DNA of 64,000 nt from Candidatus Latescibacterota bacterium (lineage in GTDB: Bacteria > Latescibacterota > UBA2968). The stretch covers positions 3,968,001-4,032,000 of the forward strand of contig OZ244960.1 of assembly GCA_965222605.1 (NCBI GenBank). Direction: 5' to 3'. The translations under genes were made by a program, and so were the position numbers. The notes beneath the pieces were generated by a model that made no database searches, was not told where the DNA came from, and worked only from the letters and a program-made list of their open reading frames with translations. Below, one piece after another: positions 6,385 to 28,002 of the stretch. Within the stretch, counting starts at the first letter, position 1. Each line of letters begins with the position of its first letter.

Positions 6385-6487
6385 GTAGGGGACGGTCCCC
6401 GTGCCGTCTCGTGTGTCATCGCGGCATGATTTTAGCCGCGATCCAGTGTTTTTGCCTGTCCATCCGTGTCCATCTGTGGTTGCTTTT
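6385..6487 (+). repeat. REP-like palindrome (GTAGGGG...) plus a 27-bp repeat abutting the start codon
   Basis: gtaggggacggtccccgtgccgtc at 6385; catccgtgtccatctgtggttgctttt (6461-6487) is identical to the reverse complement of 57296-57322. Confidence 0.7.
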
Positions 6488-9400: not shown

Positions 9401-11410
9401 GGAGATGACGAAACAGCACTTGAATGGGCAGAAAAAGCCAGTGAAGGTTTACAGCAAACATCGGGTATGTACACGGGCATATTGCCCCTGGTGTATTGTG
9501 GTATTGGCGTTGCTCTGGCTAAGGCAGGGCGGATTGCGGAGGCTGAACAGGCTTTTGAGCAGGCTATTGAATGCCGAAGAGAATCCAAAGGCGATCACTG
9601 GGCGCGTGCATCGCTGATGGCAGGAGAGTTTTATCTCGAGCGCGATGATATGACAAAAGCGCAAGAGTATCTCGAAGCGGCAAAACAGGCGTTTGAAGAA
9701 ATGGAAATGTCCTACTTTCTGAGGAGAACACAGATGTTATTCAGTCAATTATCTCACGACGAAGATGGTCGCGGCAGGGATGCCGTTCCAATGTTCCAAT
9801 CAGGTGAATCTTCTCGCGGTGAGGACTTGCCTGCTATCGTGCAAGCAGGTGCCGCATCTATTTCTGAGATTTCAGTCGATACGTTGTCCGTTGATCGCCT
9901 GCGCTTGCTTTACGAGGTGAGCCGAGAATTGACTACAGAGCGCGATCTCAAGGTGCTATTGGATCGAGTTTTGGGTAATTTGTTGACTGTCTATCCAGCA
10001 GCAGAGCGGGTGCTTGTTGCAATCAAAAATGAGGCTTCGCAAGGCTTTGTAGTTGATGCGATACGTCACCACAATGTAGAAGCAGATGATTTAGAAGAAT
10101 TGAGTGGGGGTATTATTCGTCGGGTTATTGAGACAAATGAACCTGTTTTGAGCATGGATGCCCAGACAGACGACAGGCTCAATTGGTACCAAAGTGTGAT
10201 CGACTACCACATTCGGTCTGTATTGTGTGTGTCCTTATTTCATGTTGAGGAAGGTGTTATCGGTGCATTGTATGTGGATCATCGCGGCATGGACAACGCA
10301 TTTTCTGATGAAGATCAGACGTTTTTACAGGCATTTGCGAATCTGGTGAGTGTGGCACTGGTCAATGCGAGGATGCACGAACAATTGGAAGAGAAAGCAC
10401 AATATTTGCAGCAAGAGGTCGAAAGACGGTACCAGCTTGGCGACCTGTTTGGACAAAGTGATGCAATGCAGATGGTTTACCAGTTTATCGAACGCGCTGC
10501 AAAGAGTGATATCCCCGTGCTTGTACAGGGCGAAACAGGTACGGGCAAAGAATTGGCTGCGCGTGCCATACACTACAATAGCATACGCAAAGACCAGCGA
10601 TTTTTGTCAGAAAATTGTGCTGCACTGTCACCTGAGTTGTTGCAGAGTGAGTTGTTTGGGCACAAAAAAGGCGCGTTTACTGGGGCGAATGAAGATCATA
10701 AGGGGATTTTTGAGGTTGCCAATGGGGGTACGGTTTTTTTAGATGAAATAGGTGATGCCCCGCCGCAGTTGCAAAGGAGTTTGTTGCGGGTGTTGCAAGA
10801 AGGTGAAGTACGGCGTGTGGGAGAAACTGTAGATCGTGCAGTAGATGTGCGCATTATTGCAGCGACCAATCGAGACTTAAAAAAAGAAGTTGAAAACGGT
10901 TCTTTCCGTGAAGATTTGTATTACCGGTTGCATGTGATTCAGATCGATATGCCGCCTTTGCGAGAACACCTTGAAGATGTGCCATTATTGGCAGAACATT
11001 TGCTCATTCGGGCAAAAGAAGAGTCAAACAAGTCGGTTGGAGGGCTGACAGTGGGTGCAATCAGGGCGCTTACAAGTTACGACTGGCCTGGCAATGTGCG
11101 CGAGTTGGAGAATGAGATTCGGCGTGCGGTTGCATTGGCAAAAGAAGAGGGAGATATTACGCCCGATTTGTTTTCAGAAGCTGTCGGGTACGCAGTGCCG
11201 GATGCTTCTGTCGAATACCACTTGCCTGCGCAGGCGGATGCCCGCACGCAAGCAGGAGGGCGTTTACAAGATCGTATGCAGGAGTATGAGAGACGGTTGA
11301 TTCGAGACGCACTTGAGAGATACAAGGGCAATATTACGCATACGGCTAAAGAACTGGGGGTGGCACGCATTAGCTTGTATAGAAAGATCAATCGTTTGGG
11401 GTTGAGGTAG
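6488..11410 (+). CDS. Sigma54-dependent enhancer-binding activator with N-terminal Ser/Thr kinase, STAND-like AAA ATPase, TPR and GAF domains and a C-terminal Fis-type HTH
   Basis: Kinase GTGGMGEV/ALK/HRDLKPSN/DLG/GTAEYMSPE; P-loop GEAGVGKT; TPR-like helices; GAF (IRSVLCV..GALYVD); bEBP GETGTGKE, GAFTGA, FLDEIGD, WPGNVRELEN; HTH NITHTAKELGVARISLYRK. Confidence 0.93.
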   Translation: MFKIGTIFDKRYQIQAHLGTGGMGEVYRVLDLDQDRECALKILNTMVDQKAAHRRFHREFQVLNRLQHPRLVRTHTWGFAEERPYFTMEYLPGKTLEKIIADQALLARFRASHFFALVQQLAEGLAYIHAQGAVHRDLKPSNIMVLETEEGIETTILDLGLAKFRHLHSVSITQTGATIGTAEYMSPEQGKGFWVDHRSDLYSLGVILYEVLTDAPPFSGQNPISVILKHIREIPPSMSEINIAVSEEIQQVVLKLLAKGAVDRYQSAEEVVRALPSGFVPSDDEQRDVPVKVMRPQFVGRESEMKTLHAMLHDVQAGEQRVVLISGEAGVGKTRLVEELLGDALIHDFLCLKGSGQEEGGQIYGALIDAFQRVKTTDLVGRVPDPVETDKFSVMERWLQLLKSLRQKQPIVLCLEDIQWLDELTLEFLQYVLRDPEPCPFLLCLTCRWSNLEPFSEEVENFIHSNEFAEATHIQLENLPQEEVGYLAASMLGERSIPSDALQALFRETGGQPLFVVEAMRTLVNVDVVRQNVSDDWQWGEFPETLLSDDISEVLYRRITALPAVQQRVLEYACVFLGDFSFELLAEIWRGDELELLDVLDDLVAEGLLTTYGDEKERYRFSQSLCRRAIYDRIQNVRRRLLHREIGNALEDTEDAEELTEELADHFAAAEEQDKAVKYMRLSGKKALAIQAYRQGLRRFEAVRDWTTNDAFESQADAIDFLCDYADVLRNCDQPNRALKLLEEAKALLPDDRNDLKARILNREGSIHSVLQHGAIAEEYMLEALRLYRELDDLDGEIQALGGLAYLCDVSGRHEEAIAYMRREIEKYATLGDAQNKAVLQRREGLFALVGFRFKTAKSHLEATVKTAQQLGLEYHQIWALNLLVRVYFYLGDLNRAEAVCYEVIGEWQKRGVIHLEAVNFLYLGELALERGDFAEALEYAEISAERFLETSRKDYVYRAYAISATAAARMGDDETALEWAEKASEGLQQTSGMYTGILPLVYCGIGVALAKAGRIAEAEQAFEQAIECRRESKGDHWARASLMAGEFYLERDDMTKAQEYLEAAKQAFEEMEMSYFLRRTQMLFSQLSHDEDGRGRDAVPMFQSGESSRGEDLPAIVQAGAASISEISVDTLSVDRLRLLYEVSRELTTERDLKVLLDRVLGNLLTVYPAAERVLVAIKNEASQGFVVDAIRHHNVEADDLEELSGGIIRRVIETNEPVLSMDAQTDDRLNWYQSVIDYHIRSVLCVSLFHVEEGVIGALYVDHRGMDNAFSDEDQTFLQAFANLVSVALVNARMHEQLEEKAQYLQQEVERRYQLGDLFGQSDAMQMVYQFIERAAKSDIPVLVQGETGTGKELAARAIHYNSIRKDQRFLSENCAALSPELLQSELFGHKKGAFTGANEDHKGIFEVANGGTVFLDEIGDAPPQLQRSLLRVLQEGEVRRVGETVDRAVDVRIIAATNRDLKKEVENGSFREDLYYRLHVIQIDMPPLREHLEDVPLLAEHLLIRAKEESNKSVGGLTVGAIRALTSYDWPGNVRELENEIRRAVALAKEEGDITPDLFSEAVGYAVPDASVEYHLPAQADARTQAGGRLQDRMQEYERRLIRDALERYKGNITHTAKELGVARISLYRKINRLGLR

Positions 11411-11422
11411 ATGTTGGATTGG

Positions 11423-11549
11423 TGTATCATTTTGTAACAGTGTATCATTGTGTATCATTTGGCTTACAGTCTATTTATTTTTATATAAATCAGTCAGTTA
11501 TGCATATTTTATTTAGATGAACGGTTATAAGTGTATCATATTATATACA
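11423..11549. promoter_or_regulatory. Candidate upstream activating sequences (bEBP enhancer) and IHF-like site
   Basis: TGTATCAT at 11423, 11441, 11451 and 11532; three copies close as TGT-N11/12-ACA. IHF-like aatcagtcagtta at 11488-11500. Lies about 110-235 bp upstream of the -24/-12 site. Confidence 0.6.
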
Positions 11550-11657
11550 CTTATGTCTGAATGTAATATCTGTAATATACATAGTCCTTAAATTTTATCT
11601 CTTTGTTTTTTAAGCACTTGAGTATCTTCAAGTGTTTTTTTGTGCTGGGACGATTTT

Positions 11658-11673
11658 TGGCACGGATCTTGCA
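11658..11673 (+). promoter_or_regulatory. Sigma54 (-24/-12) promoter
   Basis: TGGCACGGATCTTGCA matches TGGCACG-N4-TTGCW with exact GG-N10-GC spacing. Confidence 0.9.
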
Positions 11674-11728
11674 CTATAAAAAGGGCAAACCGTTATGGCG
11701 TAGGTTTTTTCCATTACAGGAGGATAAC

Positions 11729-11890
11729 ATGGCGACGCGACGCAAGTTGAATCTGATCAATGGAACGATAGATGCAGAGGGTGGTATTTGTATGTATCGG
11801 GCGACGAACAGTTTTGAAATTGGTTGTGAACCCGGTTGGCCATCTGTTCCTCCCCTTCCCTTTCCCGATGATGATGACGATGATTTTTAG
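11729..11890 (+). CDS. Putative RiPP precursor peptide 1 (53 aa)
   Basis: RBS AGGAGG; MATRRKLNLINGTIDAEGGICMYRATNSFEIGCEPGWPSVPPLPFPDDDDDDF; first gene after the sigma54 promoter and upstream of an RRE-radical SAM gene. Confidence 0.8.
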   Translation: MATRRKLNLINGTIDAEGGICMYRATNSFEIGCEPGWPSVPPLPFPDDDDDDF

Positions 11891-15973: not shown

Positions 15974-17344
15974 ATGAAAATTTGTGTAGTTGGTTTGGGC
16001 CATGTTGGCACTGTGAACATTGCCTACTTGCTTGAACGAGGTCATATCGTCACAGGCTTGGATGTCTCCCAGGAAAGAATCCGCCATCTTTTTGCCGGTG
16101 AACCTGAACCAGAACCCCGCGTAAGCGACCTGCTAAGTTCAGCACTTAGAAGTGGGAGGCTCCAGCTTTCGACTGACTACTTCAAAGCTGTCGAGGAGGC
16201 GAGTGTAGCGATCATCTGTGTAGGTACGCCGCAAGGGGAGAAAGACGGAATACCAAATCTGAGTTTTCTTTATCAGGCCGTAACGTCACTGGTTGAGATA
16301 GTCAACAAGAAAAAAGGCACGTTCGACGTAGTTCTGCGCAGCACTGTTCCGCCCGGGACGACGCGTAATATCGTCTCTGGAGCCTTCGGGAATTTTGGCA
16401 ATGTCTGGTATTACCCGGAGTTCTTGAGAGAAGGAAGCGCAATTGAGGACATGAATGATCCCCCGATACGGATCGTTGGTGCTCCAAAGACTGGTTATTG
16501 TCAGCGCGTGTTAGATATTTACGGTGAGACTGGGCCAGTGTACATTACCGAATACGAAATAGCTGAAATGGTGAAGTATGTATGCAATGCTTTTCATGCC
16601 ATGAAGGTTACTTTCACGAATGAGATATCGAATGTTTGCAGATATCTCGGGATAGACAGCAATAGAGTAATGGAGGTAGTGTGCTCAGACAACAAGCTCA
16701 ATATGTCAAAAGCCTACATGAGGCCGGGATTCGCATTCGGAGGATCCTGTCTCCCGAAGGATCTTACAGCACTCCTGCGGCTATCGAACGGACGACAAGA
16801 ACCCGAATTGCCTCTGCTGACCAATATCATTGTCAGTAATGATCTTCATATCAGATCCACGGTAAGGAGGGTAAGGTCACTTGCCGTTCGAGGAACATTG
16901 GGTATGTTGGGTTTGAGTTTTAAGCCCAATACAGGCGACTTGAGGGATAGTCCGTTCGTAAAACTCGGAAACATGCTCATCTCAGAAGGGTACCAGGTAA
17001 TCGCATATGACCCTTCAGTAGAGTTAGGTCTCCTGGATGTAGGGCAGACTTATATTCAAAGCGATGCCAGAAAGATCTGGCAGGGACAATTGGCCAAATC
17101 CCTCAATTCGCTATGTGAGTGTTCTCTACTTTTGATCGCACATCCCATTTCTTCATTTCATACACCGATTTTACCCATCTTGAAGGGCAAGCATGTTCTT
17201 GATTTGTGCAACGATCCTTTGCGAGAGCAAATCGCTGCTATTGCTGACTATGAAGGTGTGGGCTGGGAATCCCGTTCAGGATGTGTTCGGAATGTAAGCT
17301 TGGCAAAGGCTGAAGAAGCGTTAAAGAACACGTCATATTCATAA
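15974..17344 (+). CDS. UDP-glucose/GDP-mannose dehydrogenase family protein (AlgD-like)
   Basis: VVGLGHVG, ICVGTP, RSTVPPGT, PEFLREG, FGGSCLPKD, GLSFKPNTGDLRDSP. Confidence 0.93.
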   Translation: MKICVVGLGHVGTVNIAYLLERGHIVTGLDVSQERIRHLFAGEPEPEPRVSDLLSSALRSGRLQLSTDYFKAVEEASVAIICVGTPQGEKDGIPNLSFLYQAVTSLVEIVNKKKGTFDVVLRSTVPPGTTRNIVSGAFGNFGNVWYYPEFLREGSAIEDMNDPPIRIVGAPKTGYCQRVLDIYGETGPVYITEYEIAEMVKYVCNAFHAMKVTFTNEISNVCRYLGIDSNRVMEVVCSDNKLNMSKAYMRPGFAFGGSCLPKDLTALLRLSNGRQEPELPLLTNIIVSNDLHIRSTVRRVRSLAVRGTLGMLGLSFKPNTGDLRDSPFVKLGNMLISEGYQVIAYDPSVELGLLDVGQTYIQSDARKIWQGQLAKSLNSLCECSLLLIAHPISSFHTPILPILKGKHVLDLCNDPLREQIAAIADYEGVGWESRSGCVRNVSLAKAEEALKNTSYS

Positions 17345-17426
17345 AAAAGCCGCCGACAGACCCTGGCAAGTCGAGTGTCGGCGGCAGACTGCAGTTCAAA
17401 GCTCAAGCATTTGGGAATGTGAGCTT
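17343..17426. ncRNA. Structured intergenic element A, copy 1 (candidate cis-regulatory or small RNA)
   Basis: Two hairpins, ccgccgaca..tggcaa..tgtcggcgg and gctca-ag-catt-tggg-aatg-tgagc; recurs at 24886 and 27902. Confidence 0.55.
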
Positions 17427-17432
17427 GATAGT

Positions 17433-17461
17433 AAGATATCTTTTGAGGGGCAGGTTGTCAA
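17433..17461 (-). promoter_or_regulatory. Antisense sigma70 promoter pointing into element A copy 1
   Basis: Minus strand TTGACA-17 nt-TATCTT; the transcript would end at the GC hairpin plus U6 (A6 at 17343-17348). Confidence 0.55.
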
Positions 17462-17488
17462 CCATCGTGCAATCGGATATAAAAATTT

Positions 17489-17782
17489 ATGGCAAAAAAC
17501 ACAATAACAATACCTGAGATTGAGAATCAGATTCAAGATTTGGTCCTGAAGGCATTAGATCATGAAGTCACATCTGATAATATAGATTGGAGCGATCTTC
17601 TTTTGATTTCTATACTTGATTCTGTCTCTATCATGGCCCTGGTGACAGGCTTAGAGGATACATTTGACGTGGTCGTAGAGGACGAAGAACTCACAGAAGA
17701 AATGCTAACTTCGACACGTTCGGTAGCGAAGTATATATATGAAAAATTAGCCACTGATGCACATTCGCTCGCTCTCGAATAG
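17489..17782 (+). CDS. Acyl carrier protein
   Basis: Acidic 97-aa protein with the LDSVSIM phosphopantetheine Ser motif and LEDTFDV. Confidence 0.85.
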   Translation: MAKNTITIPEIENQIQDLVLKALDHEVTSDNIDWSDLLLISILDSVSIMALVTGLEDTFDVVVEDEELTEEMLTSTRSVAKYIYEKLATDAHSLALE

Positions 17783-17819
17783 ATCAACGCCAGAAACTAA
17801 CACTGTGAAAGGTTTTTTG

Positions 17820-19724
17820 ATGGAGCATTTTTTTTCTAATTTGACAGGTACAGGTACCCGGGTAGGCGTCATTGATAGCGGTTTTAATACGGGTAAAAAA
17901 AACGTGCATGTGTTGAATGGTACCAGTTTCTGTAATGGCGATGCCCAACCAGATTCAAATTACAAAGATATGATCGGCCACGGAACAGCATGTATTGGCG
18001 TCATCCACACTAAAGTTCCCAATGCAGAATTTTTGCCTGTCAAAATTTTTGAGTCAGAGTTGATAACGACAATGGACATTTTGTGCAAGGCGATTTACTG
18101 GTGTGTTAAACATCAATGTCACATTATCAATTTGAGTTTAGGCACTCTCGATGAGAGCAATAGCGATGTTTTGAAGGAGGCCTGTGATTTTGCATACAAA
18201 CACCATACGTTCATTGTTGCTGCGACATCAAATGATGGACAACCGAGTATTCCCGCGTCTTTTCCCAATGTCTTTGGCGTAGCAGGAGGAAAAGTAGCTG
18301 GAAAATTTGATTACTTTTATGACCCACACGAAAAAATACAGTTTGTCGCACGGGGTGATCGTCAACGTCTGAATTGGCTGGAAGGCAAACAGATATTTAT
18401 GGGTGGATCGAGCTTTGCGGCTCCGCATATTTCTGGCTTGATTGCTCTGATAATAGAGAAATATGGTGGTATCACGCTCAACGATCTGACAGAAATTTTG
18501 AAGCTGCACTCCTTAAGCCAATGTCCCAAGCTGGTAGATAGTAGCACTTATGCGATGAGCGGGATGCCCAGATCTCGCTCAGACGTTTCTATCCGAGACC
18601 TAAATAAGGCAAATACGCCAGGCTGGATAGAAGAGGCTGTTGTTTTTCCATATAACAAAGAAATGCATGGGTTGGTGCGGTTTCGGGAGTTATTGCCATT
18701 TAGGATTACAAGAGTAGTTGACGTTGTTGGAAAAAGAACCATAGGTAAAGATTGTGGGGAGGTTATTGGGGGAGCCGAATCTAATTTGATCATACAACAA
18801 AATTTGGAAGACTGTCTGCAATACGGCGATACGCTCGTTTTGGGTTATTTGGATGAAATTAGCCGGATTAAGAAACGCGATGTGTTACAAGAATCTCTAA
18901 AATTGGCATTGAAGCATAACAAGAACGTTTACAGTCTCAGCCCCATTGCAAATAATCAATACGAAAGCATAAGTAAAGCCTTTAAAGAAAAACATCTGCA
19001 TTGTGCAGCACCAACCATAGATTTTGCAACTTATGAGGCTTTGATCAAAACTTATGATTGGAGAAACAGAAGCCAGAAACCTATCGTGGGCATATTTGGA
19101 ACAGGACCGCAACAAGGCAAGTTCACTGCTCAATTGGCACTGAGAAAACAATTACAGAAAATTGGCTATAAAGTTGGTCAATTGGGCACAGAACATCAAT
19201 CAGCGTTATTTGATTTCGATTTTACATTTCCAAATGGATATGATGGACATCGGAGTATCCAAATCCCCATGGATTTGCACATTCCACTTCTAAATTCTGC
19301 TATGGTCGGTATCGAACAATCAGACCCGGATATTATCGTTGTTGGTGGTCAGTCCGGTATCATACCTCATAGCTTTTACGAAAAATCTCAGAGTTATACT
19401 TTGCCCTCATTGATCTTACTCTTTGGAACTGTTCCCGATGCATATATCCTGCTCGTTAATTCTATCGACGAACCTGAATTTATACAGGAAAATATCCGGG
19501 TGTTAGAGAGCTTCGGGAAGGGCAAAGTGATTCTCCTTGTTTTCAGTGATAAGAAAAAAATTGTTAATGACACTGTTAATACAGTCGTCAACCAGCCGCT
19601 TTTTAGAGAGGAAATTTGTCAAACGATATTGAGTTTGGAATCAATGCATCGCATTCCAGCTACTGAGATAATTAGCGCAGAAGGACGAAAAAAGATGGCT
19701 GATATTGTTATTGATTTTTTCTGA
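17820..19724 (+). CDS. S8 subtilisin-like protease fused to a DUF1611/TIGR04066-like P-loop domain
   Basis: Catalytic triad VIDSG, GHGTAC, GSSFAAPH; C-terminal half FPYNKEMH, GIFGTGPQQGKFT, GQLGTE, DIIVVGGQSG, GTVPDAYIL. Confidence 0.85.
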   Translation: MEHFFSNLTGTGTRVGVIDSGFNTGKKNVHVLNGTSFCNGDAQPDSNYKDMIGHGTACIGVIHTKVPNAEFLPVKIFESELITTMDILCKAIYWCVKHQCHIINLSLGTLDESNSDVLKEACDFAYKHHTFIVAATSNDGQPSIPASFPNVFGVAGGKVAGKFDYFYDPHEKIQFVARGDRQRLNWLEGKQIFMGGSSFAAPHISGLIALIIEKYGGITLNDLTEILKLHSLSQCPKLVDSSTYAMSGMPRSRSDVSIRDLNKANTPGWIEEAVVFPYNKEMHGLVRFRELLPFRITRVVDVVGKRTIGKDCGEVIGGAESNLIIQQNLEDCLQYGDTLVLGYLDEISRIKKRDVLQESLKLALKHNKNVYSLSPIANNQYESISKAFKEKHLHCAAPTIDFATYEALIKTYDWRNRSQKPIVGIFGTGPQQGKFTAQLALRKQLQKIGYKVGQLGTEHQSALFDFDFTFPNGYDGHRSIQIPMDLHIPLLNSAMVGIEQSDPDIIVVGGQSGIIPHSFYEKSQSYTLPSLILLFGTVPDAYILLVNSIDEPEFIQENIRVLESFGKGKVILLVFSDKKKIVNDTVNTVVNQPLFREEICQTILSLESMHRIPATEIISAEGRKKMADIVIDFF

Positions 19725-19755
19725 GATCAAGACCTCAATGATAGGGAAAAAGTAA

Positions 19756-20478
19756 ATGCCAGAAATTCGGAAAATGTCGCTGATTTTAAATATCCTGCTG
19801 TCTGTTTTTATTTTGGTTGCGTTATTCGGGATATGGAAATTGAGAAATACGAACGCTCGTCATTGGGAAGAAATTAGAGAGCTTCGAAAAGTGAACGCAG
19901 ATTATAAGGAGCATATAAACGTCTCTACCTATGCCTCCAATTATCAAGGGCAAGAATTTCCGAAGTTGCAATTGGAGAATATAAATGGCGATTGGATTTC
20001 AACGGACTTTTCTAAAACAGGAAAAGGACTGGTTCTGGTCTTCAAGCCACAAGACTGTCAGCCCTGTTTAATCACGCAGATAAAGTTACTGGAGCATGTG
20101 TACCAAAATCAGGATCCCTCAAAACGCTTTCCAATTTATGCTTTTGCCAATGCTTCTGCAGAAGTGTTGAAAAAATTTAAAAAGAGTTTTGATCTCCATT
20201 ATGAATTGTTTCCGGATACAGAGAACATGTTATTCCAGGATAGAGTACTTACCCATCGTACCCCTGCTATCTTTGTTGTGAACAAAAAAAATATCATAAC
20301 GCATTGTCATTTTCCCTCAAAGGACCGCCCACAAAATACAGTCCTCTTTTTTGGTGTGATTCAAAGACATTTGCCTTTGCAAAAACCACTTCTGAACGAT
20401 CATCTTAAAGGGGTGACCTATTCGCAAATCATTGCCAAAGATTTTGATACTACTCCTTTATCTACATTTATTTATTGA
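19756..20478 (+). CDS. Membrane-anchored thioredoxin-fold redoxin (AhpC/TSA, MauD/ResA-like)
   Basis: N-terminal TM helix, FPKLQLENING, DCQPC motif, TPAIFVVN. Confidence 0.8.
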   Translation: MPEIRKMSLILNILLSVFILVALFGIWKLRNTNARHWEEIRELRKVNADYKEHINVSTYASNYQGQEFPKLQLENINGDWISTDFSKTGKGLVLVFKPQDCQPCLITQIKLLEHVYQNQDPSKRFPIYAFANASAEVLKKFKKSFDLHYELFPDTENMLFQDRVLTHRTPAIFVVNKKNIITHCHFPSKDRPQNTVLFFGVIQRHLPLQKPLLNDHLKGVTYSQIIAKDFDTTPLSTFIY

Positions 20479-20536
20479 TATTTATGAATAATATCTAGCA
20501 TGAAAAACATAGTAAAATATGTTGATTGTCAATACC

Positions 20537-20597
20537 AGAATGGTTTTACTTGAGCCTACCAAGTAAGGTATTCTTATGTGCATGCACATTTTGGCTT
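20537..20597 (+). repeat. Leader element B, copy 1 (5' arm of the inverted repeats around peptide 2)
   Basis: agaatggttttactt...agtaaggt...cttatg...gcaca.ttt shared with 25047-25109. Confidence 0.6.
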
Positions 20598-20623
20598 GAC
20601 TAAAAAGGAAAGGAGGTGATATT

Positions 20624-20848
20624 ATGAAAACTTTGACCAAACCTGTGAAGTCTCGGCTGTCTTCTCCGCGTATTTATGGATATGAAGATAATGGGGGTAA
20701 ATGGAAAGTCGATGGAACATCAATAGTTGAGTATGGGGATCCGGTTGAGACAACGTGGTACTACACTTACTTGGTGTGCGAGTCTGCGACCCAACCCTTC
20801 TGCACCGTAGGCGATTCAGAGACTAAAGCACGTAAAGTAGATCATTGA
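20624..20848 (+). CDS. Putative RiPP precursor peptide 2 (74 aa)
   Basis: Strong RBS AAGGAGGTGA; MKTLTKPVKSRLSSPRIYGY-EDNGGKWKVDGTSIVEYGDPVETTWYYTYLVCESATQPFCTVGDSETKARKVDH; basic leader ending in Tyr, near the S8-DUF1611 gene and ACP. Confidence 0.7.
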   Translation: MKTLTKPVKSRLSSPRIYGYEDNGGKWKVDGTSIVEYGDPVETTWYYTYLVCESATQPFCTVGDSETKARKVDH

Positions 20849-20856
20849 TGTATAAA

Positions 20857-20947
20857 TTCTGTGTTTGATAAAAAAGCAAAGTGTGCAACCATCTTGGTAG
20901 GCTCAAATTTCGTTCGGTGTTCTCGATAAATAGACCGGGGACACCGA
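20857..20947 (+). repeat. Structured intergenic element C, copy 1
   Basis: Homologous to 23600-23687; hairpin tcggtgttctcg/cggggacaccga (20914-20947). Confidence 0.65.
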
Positions 20948-21090
20948 TTTGACGCTGTCAAAAATTTCAACGCCCTTTCTCATAATATCCGAGATATGGA
21001 AAAATACTGAATGATTATTTGAGTGGCGACTTTTACCGACTATATCACAGTTTTTATGCATACCCTTCATTAACAGGATATGGATAACCG

Positions 21091-23586
21091 ATGTTTTTAA
21101 GTTATTTCCGAACATGGTTTCGCAATATCCTCAAGTATAGAACCTATTCAGCCATTAACCTGCTGGGTTTGGGGATAGGAATTGCGTGCTGTTATCTGTG
21201 CGTGCTTTACCTCCTGTATGATTGGAGCTTTGATAGGTTTCACAAAGACCATCATCGCATATACGGCATTGCAGGAAAGGTAAAACACAGTAACGGAATA
21301 ATGGGGAACGGAATAATGGGGATCCCGTTGGCGGGTACATGGGCAGAAATAGCCAGATTTCCTGTTGTATTATCTTCCATGATTTCTGCCGAAGTTCCTG
21401 AGATTGAGACCACGACCCGTGTAAAGTGTGTCCTCGGGACAGCGACCTGGCAAGTAGGTACGCACAAAGAATTTTTGCGACCTATCCAAGAGGTTTTGTT
21501 CGTTGATAGGAGTTTTGGGGCGATGTTTTCCTTTCCTCTTATTCACGGCACGTTCTTCTCGCGACCAGGGCAAGTCGTGATCACACGTAGATTCGCTCAG
21601 ATACTTACCAACGATATTGACAGTTTGATTGGCAAAGTGTTATGGATGCGCGTTGCTTCTCGCAGGTTCGTGAAAGATCTGAAACCCGTATTAGCCCCTG
21701 TTGAAATAGGGGGCATCGTGGAAACCCCGCCCCGCAATTCGAGCCTGAATTTCGAGATTCTTTTGCCATTGAGTATATCCGCAACCTTTCTAAAAAAGAA
21801 AGAAGGCAGGTGGGATTGGCAATTTAGGTGTACACATTATATCCGTTTGACAGATGAAGCAGATGTGGAGGCAGTAGAGAGAAAACTCACGGCGTTCATG
21901 CAGAAGCAGTCCTCTTTCAACTCGCTATGGGATTTAGAGACCTTTCAGGCTAAATTGCAACCCATCACAGAATTGCACCATTATAGAGGTCCGTTTATTG
22001 ATGGTGTGTTCCGCTACACGAATCCCTTATATGGATATATTCTCGGCGGTATCAGTGTATTGGTTCTGGTTATCGCGTGTTTGAATTACGTGCTCCTCTA
22101 TGTGGGGCGGTTCAACTCGCGTACCAAAGAATTGGGCATAAGGCAAATCTTTGGAGCGAGCCGCAGGCACCTCAGGTACCAACTCCTGGTCGAATGCTTT
22201 GGATACAGTCTATTAGCGTGCATCTTAGGCTTGGCAGTCGCAGAGTTGGCATCAAGTCCTCTTGAAGGTGTTTTACGGATTCCTTTCACGTCTTCGGTAG
22301 ATCCCATTCAGACCGCGATTGTTCTCCTAACACTGGCATGTCTGATAGGTCTGGTCACAGCCTTTTACCCAGCAGCCTTTATGTCGTCTGTGTCTGCCCT
22401 CAGCGTTTTGAGCAAAACAGCAAAGGCCGTCGGTTCTGGACTGTTCTTAAAGATATTGATGGCTATCCAGTCCGGTGTGACTTTAGTCTTTGTGTTTTGC
22501 ACGATCATTATCTTCGAACAGACTTTTTTTGTCATCACGGCAGAGCCGGGTTTTGAACCAGCGAATTTGGTCAGGATCAATACCAGTGGGTTGACAGAAA
22601 ATGAGATCAACCGTCTGCAAGCGTCCTTATCTGCATCTCCTCTCGTGACATCCTGTGTGCGGACGAACTTGCCCTTCGGATGGTCAAATGCAATCTTGAT
22701 GAAAGACAGCAGTGATAAACTCATTGATAACATAACCTATTATCAGGTGAAGGGGCCTTTTCTCGAGACCGTTGGGTTGCAACTCGTAAAGGGGAGAACC
22801 TTGCATCCCAACCCCATGCCCGGCGATGTGATCGTGAATGAAGCTTTCCAAAAGCACCTAACATCGCCACAGCCTCTTGGACAGGTGATCACGCAGGCGG
22901 ATACAAAGTTTAGAAGACCCGTGTTTAGCAGCGATGTGAGTGGTCGCATAGTCGGTGTGGTTAAGAATTTTCACGTTAGAAACTTGCGCCACACCGTCCC
23001 GCCGACCATCATCACGATTGCCCCGGATGATGCAACAACTAAGCGACAAGACCTAGAAATATTGATTCGGATTCGAGAAGGTAGTGCGGAAACCTTTGGT
23101 GCGTATCTCAAGGGACTGTGGCAAGACCTCAAAAAGGAGCATCACCTGACGTTTTCCTTTGTAGAAGATGACAGGCGACATTTTTATGCTAAAGAGATCA
23201 ATTGGAGCAAGATCGTCTCTGGCGCGGCCCTGTGCGCTGTCTTCATCGCGTCAATGGGTGCTATGGGCATGATCTCGCTATCCGTGGCTCGCAGAAGAAA
23301 GGAAATAGCCATCCGAAGGGTCATGGGTGCCGTGCCGTCTAAAATAGCCAGTGAGATTGTGTTGAACTACGCGCTGCCCGGGTTTATAGCCGCCGTCATC
23401 GCGCTGCCGCTGTCTTATTTATTTATCCAAGAATGGCTCTCGATATTTGCCTACCGCTTTCAATTTGGGGTTGGGACTATTTTGGTGACGCTCTTATTGG
23501 GTATTCTGCTTCCACTGATATGTGGTTTCGTACACGCGCTAAAGGTGGCTTCTGCAAATCCAATAGATGCCCTTCGAGAGGACTGA
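21091..23586 (+). CDS. FtsX/MacB-like ABC permease (duplicated MacB_PCD/FtsX domains)
   Basis: YSAINLLGLGIGIA, IACLNY, RTKELGIRQIFGA, RRKEIAIRRVMGA, NPIDALRE. Confidence 0.9.
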   Translation: MFLSYFRTWFRNILKYRTYSAINLLGLGIGIACCYLCVLYLLYDWSFDRFHKDHHRIYGIAGKVKHSNGIMGNGIMGIPLAGTWAEIARFPVVLSSMISAEVPEIETTTRVKCVLGTATWQVGTHKEFLRPIQEVLFVDRSFGAMFSFPLIHGTFFSRPGQVVITRRFAQILTNDIDSLIGKVLWMRVASRRFVKDLKPVLAPVEIGGIVETPPRNSSLNFEILLPLSISATFLKKKEGRWDWQFRCTHYIRLTDEADVEAVERKLTAFMQKQSSFNSLWDLETFQAKLQPITELHHYRGPFIDGVFRYTNPLYGYILGGISVLVLVIACLNYVLLYVGRFNSRTKELGIRQIFGASRRHLRYQLLVECFGYSLLACILGLAVAELASSPLEGVLRIPFTSSVDPIQTAIVLLTLACLIGLVTAFYPAAFMSSVSALSVLSKTAKAVGSGLFLKILMAIQSGVTLVFVFCTIIIFEQTFFVITAEPGFEPANLVRINTSGLTENEINRLQASLSASPLVTSCVRTNLPFGWSNAILMKDSSDKLIDNITYYQVKGPFLETVGLQLVKGRTLHPNPMPGDVIVNEAFQKHLTSPQPLGQVITQADTKFRRPVFSSDVSGRIVGVVKNFHVRNLRHTVPPTIITIAPDDATTKRQDLEILIRIREGSAETFGAYLKGLWQDLKKEHHLTFSFVEDDRRHFYAKEINWSKIVSGAALCAVFIASMGAMGMISLSVARRRKEIAIRRVMGAVPSKIASEIVLNYALPGFIAAVIALPLSYLFIQEWLSIFAYRFQFGVGTILVTLLLGILLPLICGFVHALKVASANPIDALRED

Positions 23587-23599
23587 TATGAAAATTTGC

Positions 23600-23687
23600 T
23601 TCTGTTCGGTAAAAAAACAGTGTGCTACCGATCTTAATAGGCCGCAACTTGACTTGGTGTTCTCGGTAAACAGGCCGGGAGTACCGA
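23600..23687 (+). repeat. Structured intergenic element C, copy 2
   Basis: Hairpin ttggtgttctcgg/ccgggagtaccga (23654-23687); substitutions relative to copy 1 retain pairing through G-U on the + strand. Confidence 0.65.
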
Positions 23688-23715
23688 GCCTATGATAAGG
23701 AAAGGATGATGATTT

Positions 23716-24807
23716 ATGAATCGCAAAAAGTTATTGGTTTCCGTGAGATGGCTGACACTCCTCCTTTTGATCTGTGGAAGTTGCCAAAAAAGTACTGTTG
23801 AAAACCAGCAAGATGGGGTCGCTCTCAAGGTGCAAGCACAAGGTGCCCAACTTTCATTGATTGATGCCATTACCCTTGAACGGTCAGAGGCAAGGCCAGC
23901 TCTCGGACGTGTCCGTTCCATTACTGTTTTGGAGAACTATATCATTATTGTAGATGCCATGAGAGAAAGTGTCGAAGTTTTTGACAAGGAGGGCAGCTAT
24001 AAGTGGTCTATTGGTAGTCGCGGGGATGGAGAAGGTCAGTACAAGAGCCCGAGCGAGCCAACAATTATCCCCAATACCGACCAAATGCTGATCTATGATG
24101 GGGGGCAGGTGCTTATCTTCTCGATTCAAGGAGAATTTTTAGGGCAGGTAAAGCTGCCAGAGAGACGCTTTATTAATCGCATGGCGGTTTCTGATGAGCA
24201 CAATCTCATTCATACTTATCTTGACAAAAACCAAAACGGTATGCTTTGTGTCACCTCCCTTGAAACTGGTGAAGACCTCGCCAAGTTCAAAGTTAGCGAG
24301 TCTCAATACGAACACTTATTTTTTGGTTTGCAGAGTTTCCAAGGGCTTGCTTATGACGAGATACAGAGAATGATATATTTTGCCTTGCCCTGGGAAGAGA
24401 AGGTTATGCGAATTGATTTGGCAACACAGGAATTTTTGACCCCCATAGTCATAAATCATCCCAAATTTGTCAGCCTCAAATTAGATGAAATAGATGATAG
24501 CAAAGATATTAGAGAATTATCCCAACACAGGTTCAGCAGATTGAACAGCATGTATCTCTTGTCTTCGAGCGATATTTTGCTCAATTACCAGTTCTGGGAT
24601 TCGTCAATGAGTACCGCGCTTATACTTTTATCAGGCTTGGATATGCAGCCATCGGCGCAAGAAGTGAAAAATGAATTGGGGTACAATATTTTTACTTGTT
24701 ATGGAAAATCTATATATATGTATTCGTCTTCCACTGATGGCGAAGATACAAATGGGAGAATTCGTGTCTATCGTCTGACGGAACCTCAAGAAGCCCCTAC
24801 CGGATAG
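23716..24807 (+). CDS. 6-bladed beta-propeller (NHL-like) lipoprotein
   Basis: Lipobox ICGSC; VFDKEGSYKWSIGSRGDGEGQY motif. Confidence 0.8.
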   Translation: MNRKKLLVSVRWLTLLLLICGSCQKSTVENQQDGVALKVQAQGAQLSLIDAITLERSEARPALGRVRSITVLENYIIIVDAMRESVEVFDKEGSYKWSIGSRGDGEGQYKSPSEPTIIPNTDQMLIYDGGQVLIFSIQGEFLGQVKLPERRFINRMAVSDEHNLIHTYLDKNQNGMLCVTSLETGEDLAKFKVSESQYEHLFFGLQSFQGLAYDEIQRMIYFALPWEEKVMRIDLATQEFLTPIVINHPKFVSLKLDEIDDSKDIRELSQHRFSRLNSMYLLSSSDILLNYQFWDSSMSTALILLSGLDMQPSAQEVKNELGYNIFTCYGKSIYMYSSSTDGEDTNGRIRVYRLTEPQEAPTG

Positions 24808-24885
24808 TGGTGAGAGTCAGGCCGTGTTCGAGTGTCTCTTTATCACAAAGTTAAAATTGAAGTGGCAAAAGTGTTAATATAAATA

Positions 24886-25041
24886 GCCGCTGATATACCT
24901 TGGCAAGTCGAGTGTCGGCGGTAAGAACAGTGTACAACCGCTGGCTGGCAATCCCTGATAGATTCGGGCGGTGTACAACTGCGCACGCGTAGCACAACGT
25001 CAGTATAGCAGTTCAAAGCTCAAGCATTTGGGAATGTGAGC
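24886..25041. ncRNA. Structured intergenic element A, copy 2 (long central insert)
   Basis: tggcaagtcgagtgtcggcgg and gcagttcaaagctcaagcatttgggaatgtgagc identical to copy 1, separated by a longer insert. Confidence 0.55.
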
Positions 25042-25046
25042 ATGAG

Positions 25047-25109
25047 AGAATGGTTTTACTTTTACTGGAGTCCATCGAGTAAGGTGCGTCTTATGCATAC
25101 GCACACTTT
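25047..25109 (+). repeat. Leader element B, copy 2
   Basis: Homologous to 20537-20597; directly follows element A copy 2 and precedes the ABC exporter. Confidence 0.55.
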
Positions 25110-25127
25110 AAGTTATTTACATTACGG

Positions 25128-26906
25128 GTGAATATGAAAAAAAAAATTAACAAATTCATCTCAGCAACTTTTTATATCTCTAAGAATAGACATGTCTTTT
25201 ATCATTTTTTAAAATTTCTGAAACCTTATTGGGTACAGCAAAGCGTTGTTTTCGTTCTCATGCTCTTGGGGACTGTTAGCTCGCTGGCCTTTCCTTATAT
25301 CATGAAAATTATTATTGATGACGTGTTTCCAAACAAAGACTATGAATTATTTATATTTATTTTGCTTCTGCTCTTGGGCATTACAGTAGGTAATATCATT
25401 ATTGGTTTTTGTTCAAACTATTTATTTTCTTGGATAAACAATCGCATTATGCTGGATATAAGGAGCCATCTTTTTGACCACTTAATCCAGTTGCCATTGA
25501 GCTTTTATGATCGCAATAAATCTGGGGATATTGTTTATAGAATGAGCAACGAAGTGGATAGGATACAGTCGTTTATCACTTCGAGTGCTTTGAATCTTAC
25601 GCATAGCTTGTTGACACTCATAGGGCTTACTGTGGTTCTCTGCTGGTTGAACTGGCAACTCTTCTTGGCTTCTATTATTGTGATACCCTTTCTGGTACTC
25701 AATATTCGCTATTTCCAGCCTAAAATAAGAGATATTACAGAACGAGGACGAAAGAAAGGCTCTGAAGTTATGAGCTATTTGATTGAGCGATTTGAGACTG
25801 TCCAATTGATTCAGGTCTATAATGCCTATAATTATGAAAACAATAGATTGTGGTCGCAGCTAAATGATCTTCTGGATATCAATATGCAAAATGTAACCTA
25901 TTCTGGCGTGATGAGATCGATTTCGAGATTTTTCACATCCCTGACACCTGCGATCATTTTGGGCTGGGGAGGCCACAAAGTCATGTTGGGCGTCATAAGC
26001 TTGGGGGCATTAGTCGCTTTTTTGCAATACCTGTCGCGCCTTTTTGAACCATTTAGAAATCTCAACCATCTTTATGTAGAACTTATCCGTGTATCTGTTT
26101 CAATGAAGCGGGTATTCGAGTTTCTCGAGATTGATATTCAGGAATGGTCCGACTCGTCTGTCACCCGTCCTTTTTCTTTTGAAAAGGAGATAGCGTTTAC
26201 CGACCTCAATTTTGGATATAACGGACAACCCGTTTTGCAGGACTTCAGCTTGAGACTTGAGAAAGGAAAAAAATATGCTCTGGTAGGGTCAAGCGGTTGT
26301 GGCAAGAGTTCATTGGTAAATTTGCTGTGTCGTTTTTATGAATCGAATACAGGTGCGATTACTATTGATCACATACCGATTACCCATATCAAACTGTATG
26401 ATCTGAGAGAGCATATTGGTCTGGTAACTCAGGAAAATCAAGTTTTTCATGATACAATCTGGGACAATATCCGATACAGCAAGCCGAACAGTACGCCTGA
26501 AGAGGTCCATAGAGCGATCAGGATAGCTGGTTTGGATGGATTTATTGAGAAGGCTGAAGATGGTGCGCTTACGCTTGTCGGTGATCGCGGGAACACACTT
26601 TCGGCTGGTCAAAAGCAGCGTATTGCCATTGCGCGTGCAATTTTGAGAGACTCGGATATTTTGATCCTGGATGAAGCTACGTCGGCACTGGATTCTGAAA
26701 GCGAAGGTGAAATTATAGCAAATTTACAGGATCTATATGAAGATAAAACGATGATTGTGATTAGCCACAGACTCAGCACGATCCAGCAGGTAGATGAGAT
26801 TATCTGTTTGGATGAGGGGAGAGTTGTGGAGCAAGGAGCACATGAAGAGTTGTTGGAGAAGAAGGGACATTATTGGCGTCTTTTTCGCAAGCAACTTATC
26901 GCATAG
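25128..26906 (+). CDS. ABC exporter, fused TMD-NBD (no C39 peptidase domain)
   Basis: Six-TM N-terminal half; GSSGCGKS, LSAGQKQR, ILDEATSALD, ISHRLS. Confidence 0.95.
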   Translation: MNMKKKINKFISATFYISKNRHVFYHFLKFLKPYWVQQSVVFVLMLLGTVSSLAFPYIMKIIIDDVFPNKDYELFIFILLLLLGITVGNIIIGFCSNYLFSWINNRIMLDIRSHLFDHLIQLPLSFYDRNKSGDIVYRMSNEVDRIQSFITSSALNLTHSLLTLIGLTVVLCWLNWQLFLASIIVIPFLVLNIRYFQPKIRDITERGRKKGSEVMSYLIERFETVQLIQVYNAYNYENNRLWSQLNDLLDINMQNVTYSGVMRSISRFFTSLTPAIILGWGGHKVMLGVISLGALVAFLQYLSRLFEPFRNLNHLYVELIRVSVSMKRVFEFLEIDIQEWSDSSVTRPFSFEKEIAFTDLNFGYNGQPVLQDFSLRLEKGKKYALVGSSGCGKSSLVNLLCRFYESNTGAITIDHIPITHIKLYDLREHIGLVTQENQVFHDTIWDNIRYSKPNSTPEEVHRAIRIAGLDGFIEKAEDGALTLVGDRGNTLSAGQKQRIAIARAILRDSDILILDEATSALDSESEGEIIANLQDLYEDKTMIVISHRLSTIQQVDEIICLDEGRVVEQGAHEELLEKKGHYWRLFRKQLIA

Positions 26907-26909
26907 GGA

Positions 26910-27419
26910 ATGGAACTGGTGAGTGTAGAATTTCGCAATCCTGACATAAAATTAGTTCTTCTGCGTGCATTGGTTATTCAAATTTTGGGAATAGGCGCAG
27001 GATTGATTTATACTGTTATTTTTAGTGAACAGCTTTTGTTCGGCGAGGTTGAAACCTTTGAAAAACAAGATGATATAACGTATGTCTCTTTAGAGGCACT
27101 TCAAAATGTAATTCAATCGAAATCAAAAATACTACTCATTGATGGACGATCTGAATCAGCTTATCACGAAGGCCATATTCCAGGGGCTGTGAACGTACCG
27201 TATATTCAGCGTGATTATTTTTTTAAAAAACTTTTGGCTGATATTGCCCGCGAGACACCAATAATTGTCTATTGTTCCGGAAAGAATTGTAATACCAGTG
27301 TCAAATTGGCGAGGTCTCTGTCAGGGGAATTTGGATTTATACATGTTCGAGTTTTTAAGGGAGGATGGGAGGAATGGGTAAAGGGTGAAAATCCGATTCA
27401 AACGAGTTTTGACAGATGA
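26910..27419 (+). CDS. Membrane-anchored rhodanese-like protein
   Basis: IDGR, GHIPGAVNVP, VYCSGKNC, GGWEEW. Confidence 0.85.
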   Translation: MELVSVEFRNPDIKLVLLRALVIQILGIGAGLIYTVIFSEQLLFGEVETFEKQDDITYVSLEALQNVIQSKSKILLIDGRSESAYHEGHIPGAVNVPYIQRDYFFKKLLADIARETPIIVYCSGKNCNTSVKLARSLSGEFGFIHVRVFKGGWEEWVKGENPIQTSFDR

Positions 27420-27883
27420 TTATACCTTCTAAATTAGCATGGATAGGAACCGTGATCCGGATATTTCTGGGGGTTATTCTCGGATGGGCTGGGGTTGTAA
27501 AAATCCGTAATCCTGAAGCATTTATTAAAATTGTGAGAGCCTACAATTTGCTACCTGAGGAATTGGGCGTGCTATGGGGAATTTTCTTGCCCTGGATTGA
27601 GCTTGTGACAGGTTTATTTTTAATTTCAGGTTTGTGGCACAAGAGTGCTGTGCTCAGTAGCTCTGGTCTTTTTTTAGCATTTGCAGCAGCAGTCGGCATT
27701 AATATTCTCCGCGGTGCAGATATCGCCTGTGGTTGTTTTGGGTTCAATGACACCAATTTGTATGTTGTGTTGTTCCAGGCCCTGGTCTTCTTGCTTTGCT
27801 GTTATTTTTTGTTTTTTCTGAAATCTACACCTTATTCTATGGACCATTGTCTTTTTACTTCTCAAAGAGGTGGACTTTCGTAA
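27416..27883 (+). CDS. MauE/DoxX family membrane protein
   Basis: RIFLG..AG..K, LPWIELVTG, IACGCFG. Confidence 0.9.
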   Translation: MIIPSKLAWIGTVIRIFLGVILGWAGVVKIRNPEAFIKIVRAYNLLPEELGVLWGIFLPWIELVTGLFLISGLWHKSAVLSSSGLFLAFAAAVGINILRGADIACGCFGFNDTNLYVVLFQALVFLLCCYFLFFLKSTPYSMDHCLFTSQRGGLS

Positions 27884-27901
27884 AGTATTCCCATGCAAAA
27901 T

Positions 27902-28002
27902 CCGCTGACAGGCCCTGGCGAGTCGAGTGTTGGCGGCAGACTGCTATCCCCGCATGAGGTAAGCAGGGGCAGTTCAAAGTGCAAGCATTTGGGAATGTGA
28001 GC
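27902..28002. ncRNA. Structured intergenic element A, copy 3 (short palindromic insert)
   Basis: ccgctgacaggccctggcgagtcgagtgttggcggcagactgc...cagttcaaagtgcaagcatttgggaatgtgagc. Confidence 0.55.

Follow-up and report, generated by a model that had tools for sequence, protein, structure and literature searches.

A candidate antisense small RNA gene and its promoter-less copies at the module joints of a gene cluster in Candidatus Latescibacterota

REP/BIME, ERIC, the Correia elements of Neisseria and the pneumococcal BOX elements are repeated intergenic elements that fold in mRNA, and the RfaH ops/JUMPStart elements belong to long polysaccharide operons. RNA-OUT of IS10 and OOP of phage lambda are antisense RNAs of mobile elements and phages that are transcribed from convergent promoters. 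GadY of Escherichia coli, reportedly described by Opdyke et al. in 2004, is said to be a cis-encoded antisense small RNA (sRNA) in the gadX-gadW spacer. According to one account, gadY stabilises the overlapping gadX mRNA (PMC7373196). Here, a window of 64,000 nucleotides (contig OZ244960.1, positions 3,968,001 to 4,032,000) was analyzed from a Candidatus Latescibacterota genome of 6,338,376 bp (6.34 Mb) that is 98.7% complete (referred to as G000). The window contains three copies of a bipartite element composed of hairpin 1, a variable linker and a 33-nt box ("hairpin 2"). The element is probably a minus-strand cis-antisense sRNA gene of about 85 nt, represented by copy 1, with two promoter-less relics (copies 2 and 3) left at module joints. 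To our knowledge, the Latescibacterota have no cultured, genetically studied member.

The predicted gene resembles GadY in being a short RNA gene on the opposite strand, located in the intergenic spacer of two genes that share their direction and belong to one regulatory unit. As with GadY, the RNA would match the sense transcript by full complementarity, and this genome has an RNase III. It differs in that it has no sequence or Rfam relationship to GadY, that Hfq was not found in the genome, and that it is a prediction from the sequence. In addition, the element family is limited to one Latescibacterota genus, and promoter-less copies are present at further joints of the same cluster. With the ops/JUMPStart elements it shares a short G-rich motif within a long polysaccharide-type operon, but the consensus is not kept, no NusG paralogue was found in the genome and the element is internal to the operon. 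Like REP/BIME, ERIC, Correia and BOX elements, which can carry promoters and give recombination products, it is intergenic, hairpin-forming and modular with a variable middle. By contrast, the genome has five hairpin-1 matches and three full copies rather than tens to hundreds, and the element is tied to one kind of gene cluster and lacks terminal inverted repeats as bounds. RNA-OUT and OOP are likewise short, terminator-ended antisense RNAs that face a sense transcript; the present element is chromosomal and resides in biosynthetic and regulatory clusters, and no transposase or phage context was seen around the copies.

The element and the minus-strand promoter and terminator of copy 1

The coordinates of the three copies are given in Table 1. 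All of them are intergenic and lie inside a long run of plus-strand genes, and the A6 run of copy 1 overlaps the TAA stop codon (17342-17344) of a UDP-sugar dehydrogenase gene. Degenerate patterns of hairpin 1 and of the hairpin-2 box each gave three matches in the window, compared with 0.00 expected from 100 shuffles. Within G000, a whole-genome scan that allowed up to 7 substitutions recovered these three full copies only, and CATTTGGGAATG is restricted to them. The hairpin-2 box of copy 2 is identical to that of copy 1 over 34 nt (34/34), and that of copy 3 is 94% identical (32/34); the length of the linker spans 0 to about 90 nt across copies. The covariance models of Rfam gave no match at the gathering score in the window and none at E <= 1 in eight loci, and a literature search on Latescibacter and RNA found no described regulatory RNA matching the element. 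The preliminary description of this stretch, which had reported three copies of an unrecognised, RNA-like, two-hairpin element, is thus correct in these respects.

Table 1. Coordinates of the element copies and of features of the upstream module in the window.
Feature	Position	Strand	Remarks
Copy 1, -35 hexamer TTGACA	17456-17461	minus	exact in 8/9 class-1 orthologues
Copy 1, -10 hexamer TATCTT (TAnnTT type)	17433-17438	minus	N17 from the -35 hexamer
Copy 1, hairpin-2 box	17392-17424	minus	stem-loop 1 of the predicted sRNA; C-rich loop UUCCCAAAU
Copy 1, linker	17385-17391	minus	7 nt; insertion site in other copies
Copy 1, hairpin 1	17349-17385 (pattern match, 17350-17384)	minus	terminator hairpin of the predicted sRNA
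Copy 1, A6 run	17343-17348	minus	U6 tail of the predicted terminator
Copy 2	24886-25041		hairpin 1, 24887-24921; linker, 24922-25008; hairpin-2 box, 25009-25041
Copy 3	27902-28002		hairpin 1, 27902-27936; 33-nt linker with small palindrome; hairpin-2 box, 27970-28002
Giant Ser/Thr-kinase-AAA-TPR-GAF-sigma-54 activator gene	6401-11410		1669 aa; Pfam context
Upstream repeats of GTGTATCAT	about 11420-11470 and 11530-11555		after the activator gene
Perfect sigma-54 promoter TGGCACGGATCTTGCA	11658-11673		57 nt before the small peptide gene
Small peptide gene	ATG at 11730		acidic tail DDDDDDF

For comparison, the copies of related genomes were assigned to class 1 (orthologues of copy 1), class 2 (after AhpC or before the ABC gene) and class 3 (after MauE). 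The exact arrangement TTGACA-N17-TA(T/C)CTT is found on the minus strand of eight of the nine class-1 orthologues, with a 17-nt spacer of variable sequence, and the ninth copy reads TTGGTA-N16-TATCTT. In one genome (G020), the homology to the other class-1 copies stops just upstream of the -35 hexamer. None of the nine class-2 and six class-3 copies has the minus-strand promoter; a -10-like TATTTT is present in copy 3 without a -35 hexamer. All seven genomes with class-2 or class-3 copies also have a promoter-bearing class-1 copy. Relatives dispersed outside the cluster were collected with a covariance model of hairpin 1 (R1); 43 copies from 40 loci were chosen among these matches, and about 15 further matches were left out. 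An exact minus-strand TTGACA-N17-TAnnnT is located at the equivalent place in 39 of the 43, with unrelated spacers, and the remaining four comprise three copies with TTCACA-N18-TAATAT and one interrupted copy.

Because sigma-70-like matches occur in the window at chance level, the promoter signature was calibrated on the tRNA genes of G000. The pattern TTGACA (<=1 mismatch)-N16-18-TAnnnT was found within 120 nt upstream of 26 of the 49 tRNA genes, against 4/49 downstream and 99/5000 random windows. Nearly all of these tRNA promoters combine an N17 spacer with a -10 hexamer of the TAnnTT type (TATCTT, TATTTT, TACTTT or TAATTT), with the same hexamers as the element. The calibration yields TTGACA-N17-TAnnTT as the housekeeping promoter signature of G000, and thereby a signature for this genus. 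It differs from the Bacteroidetes-type motif of another phylum in the same superphylum.

The polarity of hairpin 1 corresponds to that of a minus-strand terminator. At least five A residues are found within the 8 nt before hairpin 1 in 71 of 74 copies, which on the minus strand gives a U-run following the hairpin, and none of the 74 has a T-run after the hairpin on the plus strand. Hairpin 1 of copy 1 has a folding energy of -23.7 kcal/mol on the minus strand and -21.3 kcal/mol on the plus strand. The minus strand is also the more stable one in all three distinct class-1 sequences (mean -24.0 versus -21.8 kcal/mol), and the same holds for 23 of the 27 dispersed sequences; the hairpin-1 energies of classes 2 and 3 are about -13 to -15 kcal/mol with an inconsistent strand preference. 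A simple terminator scan, the loop limit of which was 8 nt, did not list hairpin 1. The predicted minus-strand RNA (17340-17426) folds into stem-loop 1, a 13-nt linker, the terminator hairpin and a U-rich tail with -32.9 kcal/mol (z = -4.04), and none of 200 shuffled sequences folds as well.

Base pairing in hairpin 1 is supported by covariation. Among 28 cluster copies, 94.3% of the hairpin-1 positions are paired and three pairs have changed on both sides. In the full set (74 copies), pairing in the outer 10-bp stem reaches 95.7%, with four pairs and 28 cells changed on both sides; its covariation score of 0.172 compares with 0.145 +/- 0.005, and 0/500 shuffles reach it. For the dispersed copies the outer stem alone was counted, the inner helix being out of register in the alignment (A3). 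One pair is C-G in 22, U-A in 22, U.G in 5 and C.A in 12 sequences. Hairpin 2 shows no compensatory pair among 24 copies and is conserved as sequence. Covariation, which had been proposed as a check of the element, thus supports hairpin 1 and does not support hairpin 2.

The copies differ strongly in their conservation. Four-fold degenerate sites of the neighbouring genes, taken from 16 gene pairs between G000 and six other genomes, are 0.68-0.88 identical. Class-1 copies from eight genomes show identities of 0.993 in hairpin 1 and 0.992 in the hairpin-2 box, whereas the values are 0.762 and 0.838 for class 2 and 0.802 and 0.881 for class 3 (a second class-1-like copy of G007 and one of two duplicated G017 copies were left out). 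About a quarter of the class-2 and class-3 stem cells are non-Watson-Crick. The identity of about 99% in class 1, against a neutral range of 68-88%, shows strong purifying selection on copy 1, whereas copies 2 and 3 are changing at a nearly neutral rate.

A putative antisense RNA at the first junction

Read on the minus strand, copy 1, like the dispersed relatives, consists of a promoter, a stem-loop, a linker, a G+C-rich hairpin and a U-run, and thus has the outline of a small RNA gene. A housekeeping-type promoter, a G+C-rich hairpin with a U-run and conservation above the neutral level are features of sRNA genes that are all found in copy 1; conservation above neutral is not found in copies 2 and 3. 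From the architecture, conservation and distribution of the cassette, and from the decay of copies 2 and 3, we infer that an RNA is produced and is functional. The compact cassette of about 120 bp (17340-17461) would be transcribed opposite to the surrounding genes. Its housekeeping-type promoter (17461-17433) would start an RNA near 17426, and the RNA of about 85 nt would contain stem-loop 1, formed by the hairpin-2 box, followed by hairpin 1 and U6 as an intrinsic terminator that abuts the upstream stop codon. Such an RNA would be convergent with, and fully complementary to, plus-strand transcripts that cross the spacer between the dehydrogenase gene and the gene of the acyl carrier protein (ACP)-like protein. 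This complementarity to the sense transcript of the spacer makes a cis-antisense regulator of junction 1 the most likely role.

The regulator may act through duplex formation and processing by RNase III or stabilisation, through collision of convergent polymerases, or both. In either case, the ACP-protease-AhpC module would no longer be coupled to the upstream module driven by sigma-54. The genome encodes RNase III (250 bits, above the cut-off), and Hfq was not found in it; a cis-antisense RNA therefore fits better than an Hfq-dependent trans-acting RNA. By analogy, processing or stabilisation of a duplex at junction 1 could proceed as the gadY account reports for gadX. Copies 2 and 3 would be promoter-less paralogues that were left at other joints and are almost neutral, probably as relics from the time when the cluster was assembled and shuffled out of units each bearing such a cassette. 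It is also conceivable, but rather unlikely, that the copy-1 RNA pairs with copies 2 and 3 as well, with the hairpin-2 box offering 34/34 and 32/34 complementary bases, respectively. It would then mark or cut a peptide/polysaccharide transcript of about 25 kb at three boundaries, and the cassette would be a portable insulator as well as a joint through which modules can be reshuffled.

The preliminary description missed the conserved minus-strand promoter and terminator, which together let the intact copy be read as a candidate antisense sRNA gene. The near-invariant cassette, with its predicted promoter and terminator, thereby becomes a concrete regulator candidate that is tied to peptide maturation and export clusters and to their receiver-AraC regulators. 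It also calls for caution: what looks like a structured mRNA repeat at an operon junction can be a relic of an antisense gene.

Several points weigh against the antisense interpretation. Among the sequencing runs recorded as RNA, none contains this stretch; transcription, the RNA ends and the strand are all predicted, and the compared genomes are related metagenome-assembled genomes (MAGs), the counts from which are not independent. The window has 23 sigma-70-like matches compared with 24.6 expected, so that the case for the promoter is based on its conservation and on the calibration with tRNA genes. A conserved plus-strand TTGnnn-N18-TATnAT lies just upstream of hairpin 1 in 40 of the 43 dispersed copies, which leaves room for a plus-strand transcript that starts at hairpin 1 in these relatives; this motif was not found in the cluster copies. 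The plus strand of the predicted RNA region folds well too (z = -3.67), as any palindromic sequence would. Hairpin 1 of copy 2 is more stable on the plus strand (-16.6 versus -8.2 kcal/mol), and that of copy 3 has -12.8 kcal/mol on the plus and -10.1 kcal/mol on the minus strand. Wobble pairs in the cluster copies number 23 on the plus and 9 on the minus strand. Finally, conservation of the hairpin-2 box in classes 2 and 3 (0.84-0.88) slightly exceeds that of the four-fold sites, and a residual function is possible.

Alternative explanations

Alternatively, all three copies may act within the plus-strand mRNA as processing or stability signals that set the half-life of each module, the minus-strand promoter being secondary. 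In detail, the A-rich single strand would combine with hairpin 1 into a cleavage site bearing a protective 5' hairpin, with hairpin 2 as a second structured mark. Every cluster copy is co-oriented with the genes and placed at a module joint, plus-strand wobbles outnumber minus-strand ones in these copies (23 versus 9), copies 2 and 3 of the window fold better on the plus strand, and the inner pair 19-33 of hairpin 2 is on that strand G.U in 17, A-U in 2 and G-C in 1 of 20 sequences. The stem substitutions of copies 2 and 3 are indeed T.G or G.T on the plus strand, as had been described; the selection on mRNA structure that had been deduced from them is not seen in hairpin 1 of these copies, which at 0.76-0.80 identity diverges as the neutral sites do (0.68-0.88). 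A transition at C on the coding strand always produces a plus-strand wobble, and mutation bias thus explains the wobbles as well as selection does; an excess of C-to-T changes on this strand is also expected from a bias linked to transcription. In the dispersed copies, outer-stem mismatches are mostly C.A on the plus strand, that is G.U on the minus strand (11 versus 5). In classes 2 and 3, hairpin 1 has about -13 to -15 kcal/mol instead of about -22 kcal/mol, the proportion of non-Watson-Crick cells is that of unconstrained decay, and hairpin 2 has no compensatory changes. Since mRNA signals would in addition leave the conserved minus-strand promoter and the one-sided A-run unexplained, we regard this explanation as unlikely. 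A primary role as recombination joints, also put forward in the preliminary description, would make the copies portable boundaries at which homologous recombination can exchange, duplicate or delete modules, and copies 2 and 3 would have no RNA function. Modules are ordered differently in different genomes and have copies at their joints, the tandem duplication of G017 includes two near-identical copies, the regions downstream of class-3 copies cannot be aligned between genomes, and the leader of peptide 2 is duplicated in the window (20537-20569 and 25047-25086). However, no recombinase is tied to the element (an integrase was not searched for), hairpins 1 and 2 are not mutually complementary as the ends of attC sites are, and any repeats recombine in this way, so that the rearrangements may be a consequence rather than a function. 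The 99% conservation of class 1, the promoter and the terminator would also go unexplained. Recombination therefore has some support as a by-product, the duplicated [propeller-FtsX-copy] unit of G017 being the example, and as the primary role it is decidedly improbable.

Hairpin 1 could alternatively be a palindromic double-stranded DNA site for a regulator, such as an enhancer of sigma-54 promoters. In favour of this, a near-perfect sigma-54 promoter, TGGCACACATGTTGC, and a gene for a receiver-AraC regulator are found 262-281 nt downstream of 27 of the 45 dispersed copies. The compensatory changes between copies of one genome (C-G to U-A, 22 versus 22 at one pair) fit base pairing instead, and a variable centre separates the half-sites by 17-18 bp. 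None of the three window copies is followed by a sigma-54 promoter (<=2 mismatches), and the sigma-54 promoter upstream in the cluster has GTGTATCAT repeats of its own. We consider a DNA site very improbable. The proposal that the copies are ops/JUMPStart-like loading sites for an RfaH-type antiterminator in a very long operon started from GGCGGCAGACTG, which is present in copies 1 and 3 and differs by one mismatch from the ops consensus as quoted at the time; GGCGGTAG is found in some orthologues. The GGCGG of this 12-mer is the 3' arm of hairpin 1, and the bases that follow vary over 28 copies (CAGACTG, TAAGAAC, TAGGCAG, TAGCTCC, CAGTTCA and others), copy 2 reading GGCGGTAAGAAC. A search of the genome for NusG paralogues with models for NusG (PF02357), RfaH, UpxY and LoaP (TIGR01955, NF033644 and NF033641) matched one locus, a 188-aa NusG at C1:299329-299835 that scores below every paralogue cut-off. 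Moreover, the copies are internal sites that follow the sigma-54 promoter by 5.7, 13.2 and 16.2 kb, and they are not located in the 5' leader. Antitermination of this type has to be given up almost entirely.

Some further candidates were rejected. As a sigma-54 promoter inside the element, the TGGCAAG...GTGTC of the hairpin-1 loop lacks the -12 GC, and no plus-strand sigma-70 promoter was seen by eye in or after hairpin 2. An integron attC site was dismissed by inspection, as each hairpin pairs within itself and not with the other (an integrase was not searched for). Open frames in the element or leader that might encode a small peptide or a type I toxin have 4-14 codons, none of them hydrophobic. 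The copy number (three full copies and five hairpin-1 matches in 6.34 Mb) is too low for a genome-wide REP or MITE.

Distribution, dispersed relatives and the gene cluster

The element family is confined to one genus of the Latescibacterota. A DNA search detected it in 16 of the 20 genomes compared from this genus and in none of 40 others. R1 matches 18 of 21 genus genomes, G000 included, and in a sample of the phylum it matched 16/19 genus genomes and 0/131 genomes of 45 other genera. When 185,579 species genomes were scanned with a 19-mer of hairpin 2, 43 loci were obtained, 16 of which have hairpin 1 alongside; the other 27 are chance matches, including a repeated coding sequence in OZ242383.1. 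Fifteen of the 16 loci belong to Latescibacterota MAG records, and one is on a 4.5-kb contig binned as Gammaproteobacteria. This contig (VXYV01000024.1, locus L057) carries a full class-1-like copy and is probably misbinned. In a metagenome scan with a similar 19-mer, none of 40 loci had hairpin 1 at E <= 0.001; these are chance matches that added nothing to the known diversity.

Two of the five R1 matches of G000 are located outside the cluster, at C1:2343388 and C1:418366. The dispersed copies have a fixed order of A-run, hairpin 1, short linker, a different second hairpin (CTCAAG-N7-CTTGAG) and about 12 variable bases. They head paralogous clusters that encode receiver-AraC regulators, HlyD, ABC exporters, M16 peptidases and the subtilase-DUF1611 fusion. 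A receiver-AraC regulator gene is also found directly upstream of the class-1 copy in five genomes (G005, G013, G020, G002 and G011). The co-occurrence of the cassette with these regulators and with the paralogous clusters identifies it as part of the regulatory equipment of this cluster family. G000 has three paralogous receiver-AraC regulator genes (C1:2342257-2343090, 417364-418062 and 910770-911459); two of them have a dispersed cassette and TGGCACACATGTTGC upstream, and the third has no hairpin-1 match.

The enhancer and promoter that serve the cluster are probably those of the region 11400-11740, between the activator gene and the small peptide gene. The small peptide gene is followed by a radical SAM gene and sugar genes, the last of which encodes the UDP-sugar dehydrogenase next to copy 1. 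Between copies 1 and 2 are encoded a 97-aa protein with an ACP-like DSVS motif, the subtilase-DUF1611 fusion, AhpC, peptide 2, FtsX and a beta-propeller protein. An ABC exporter, a rhodanese and MauE are encoded between copies 2 and 3, and GT4 and further sugar genes after copy 3. In agreement with what had been noted before, each copy precedes a new functional block, which begins with the ACP-like gene at 17489, the ABC exporter gene at 25128 and the GT4 gene at 28116, respectively. Across seven genomes, the copies are found where modules meet, and these modules are arranged differently from genome to genome. Propeller and FtsX are in inverted order in some of them, and four genomes have an element copy after AhpC that G000 does not have.

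The duplication in G017 (L022, 4079-12308) is a tandem repeat of about 4.4 kb that comprises [propeller-FtsX-element copy]; its two near-identical copies have the same GC-rich palindromic insert in the linker. The leader of peptide 2 at 20537-20569 contains a hairpin, TTACTTGA...TCAAGTAA, that covers the AAGGT(G) ribosome-binding site. Of its duplicate after copy 2 (25047-25086) a 12-codon frame is all that remains, and in other genomes the leader comes immediately after class-2 copies.

The linker between the hairpins is a recurrent insertion site of GC-rich palindromes of the GCCTGC...GCAGGC type in both dispersed and cluster copies, an example being located around 1553-1590 of L109 (G015). 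In copy 2, the 87-nt linker includes a 49-bp repeat (GCGGTGTACAAC...GTATAGCAGTTCAA), the end of which, GCAGTTCAA, coincides with the start of the hairpin-2 box. Four copies of this repeat are present in the genome, at 24968-25016 of the window and at C1:312621, 3808501 and 5625287, and its core GTGTACAAC occurs 115 times in G000. The repeat may be a small mobile palindromic element.

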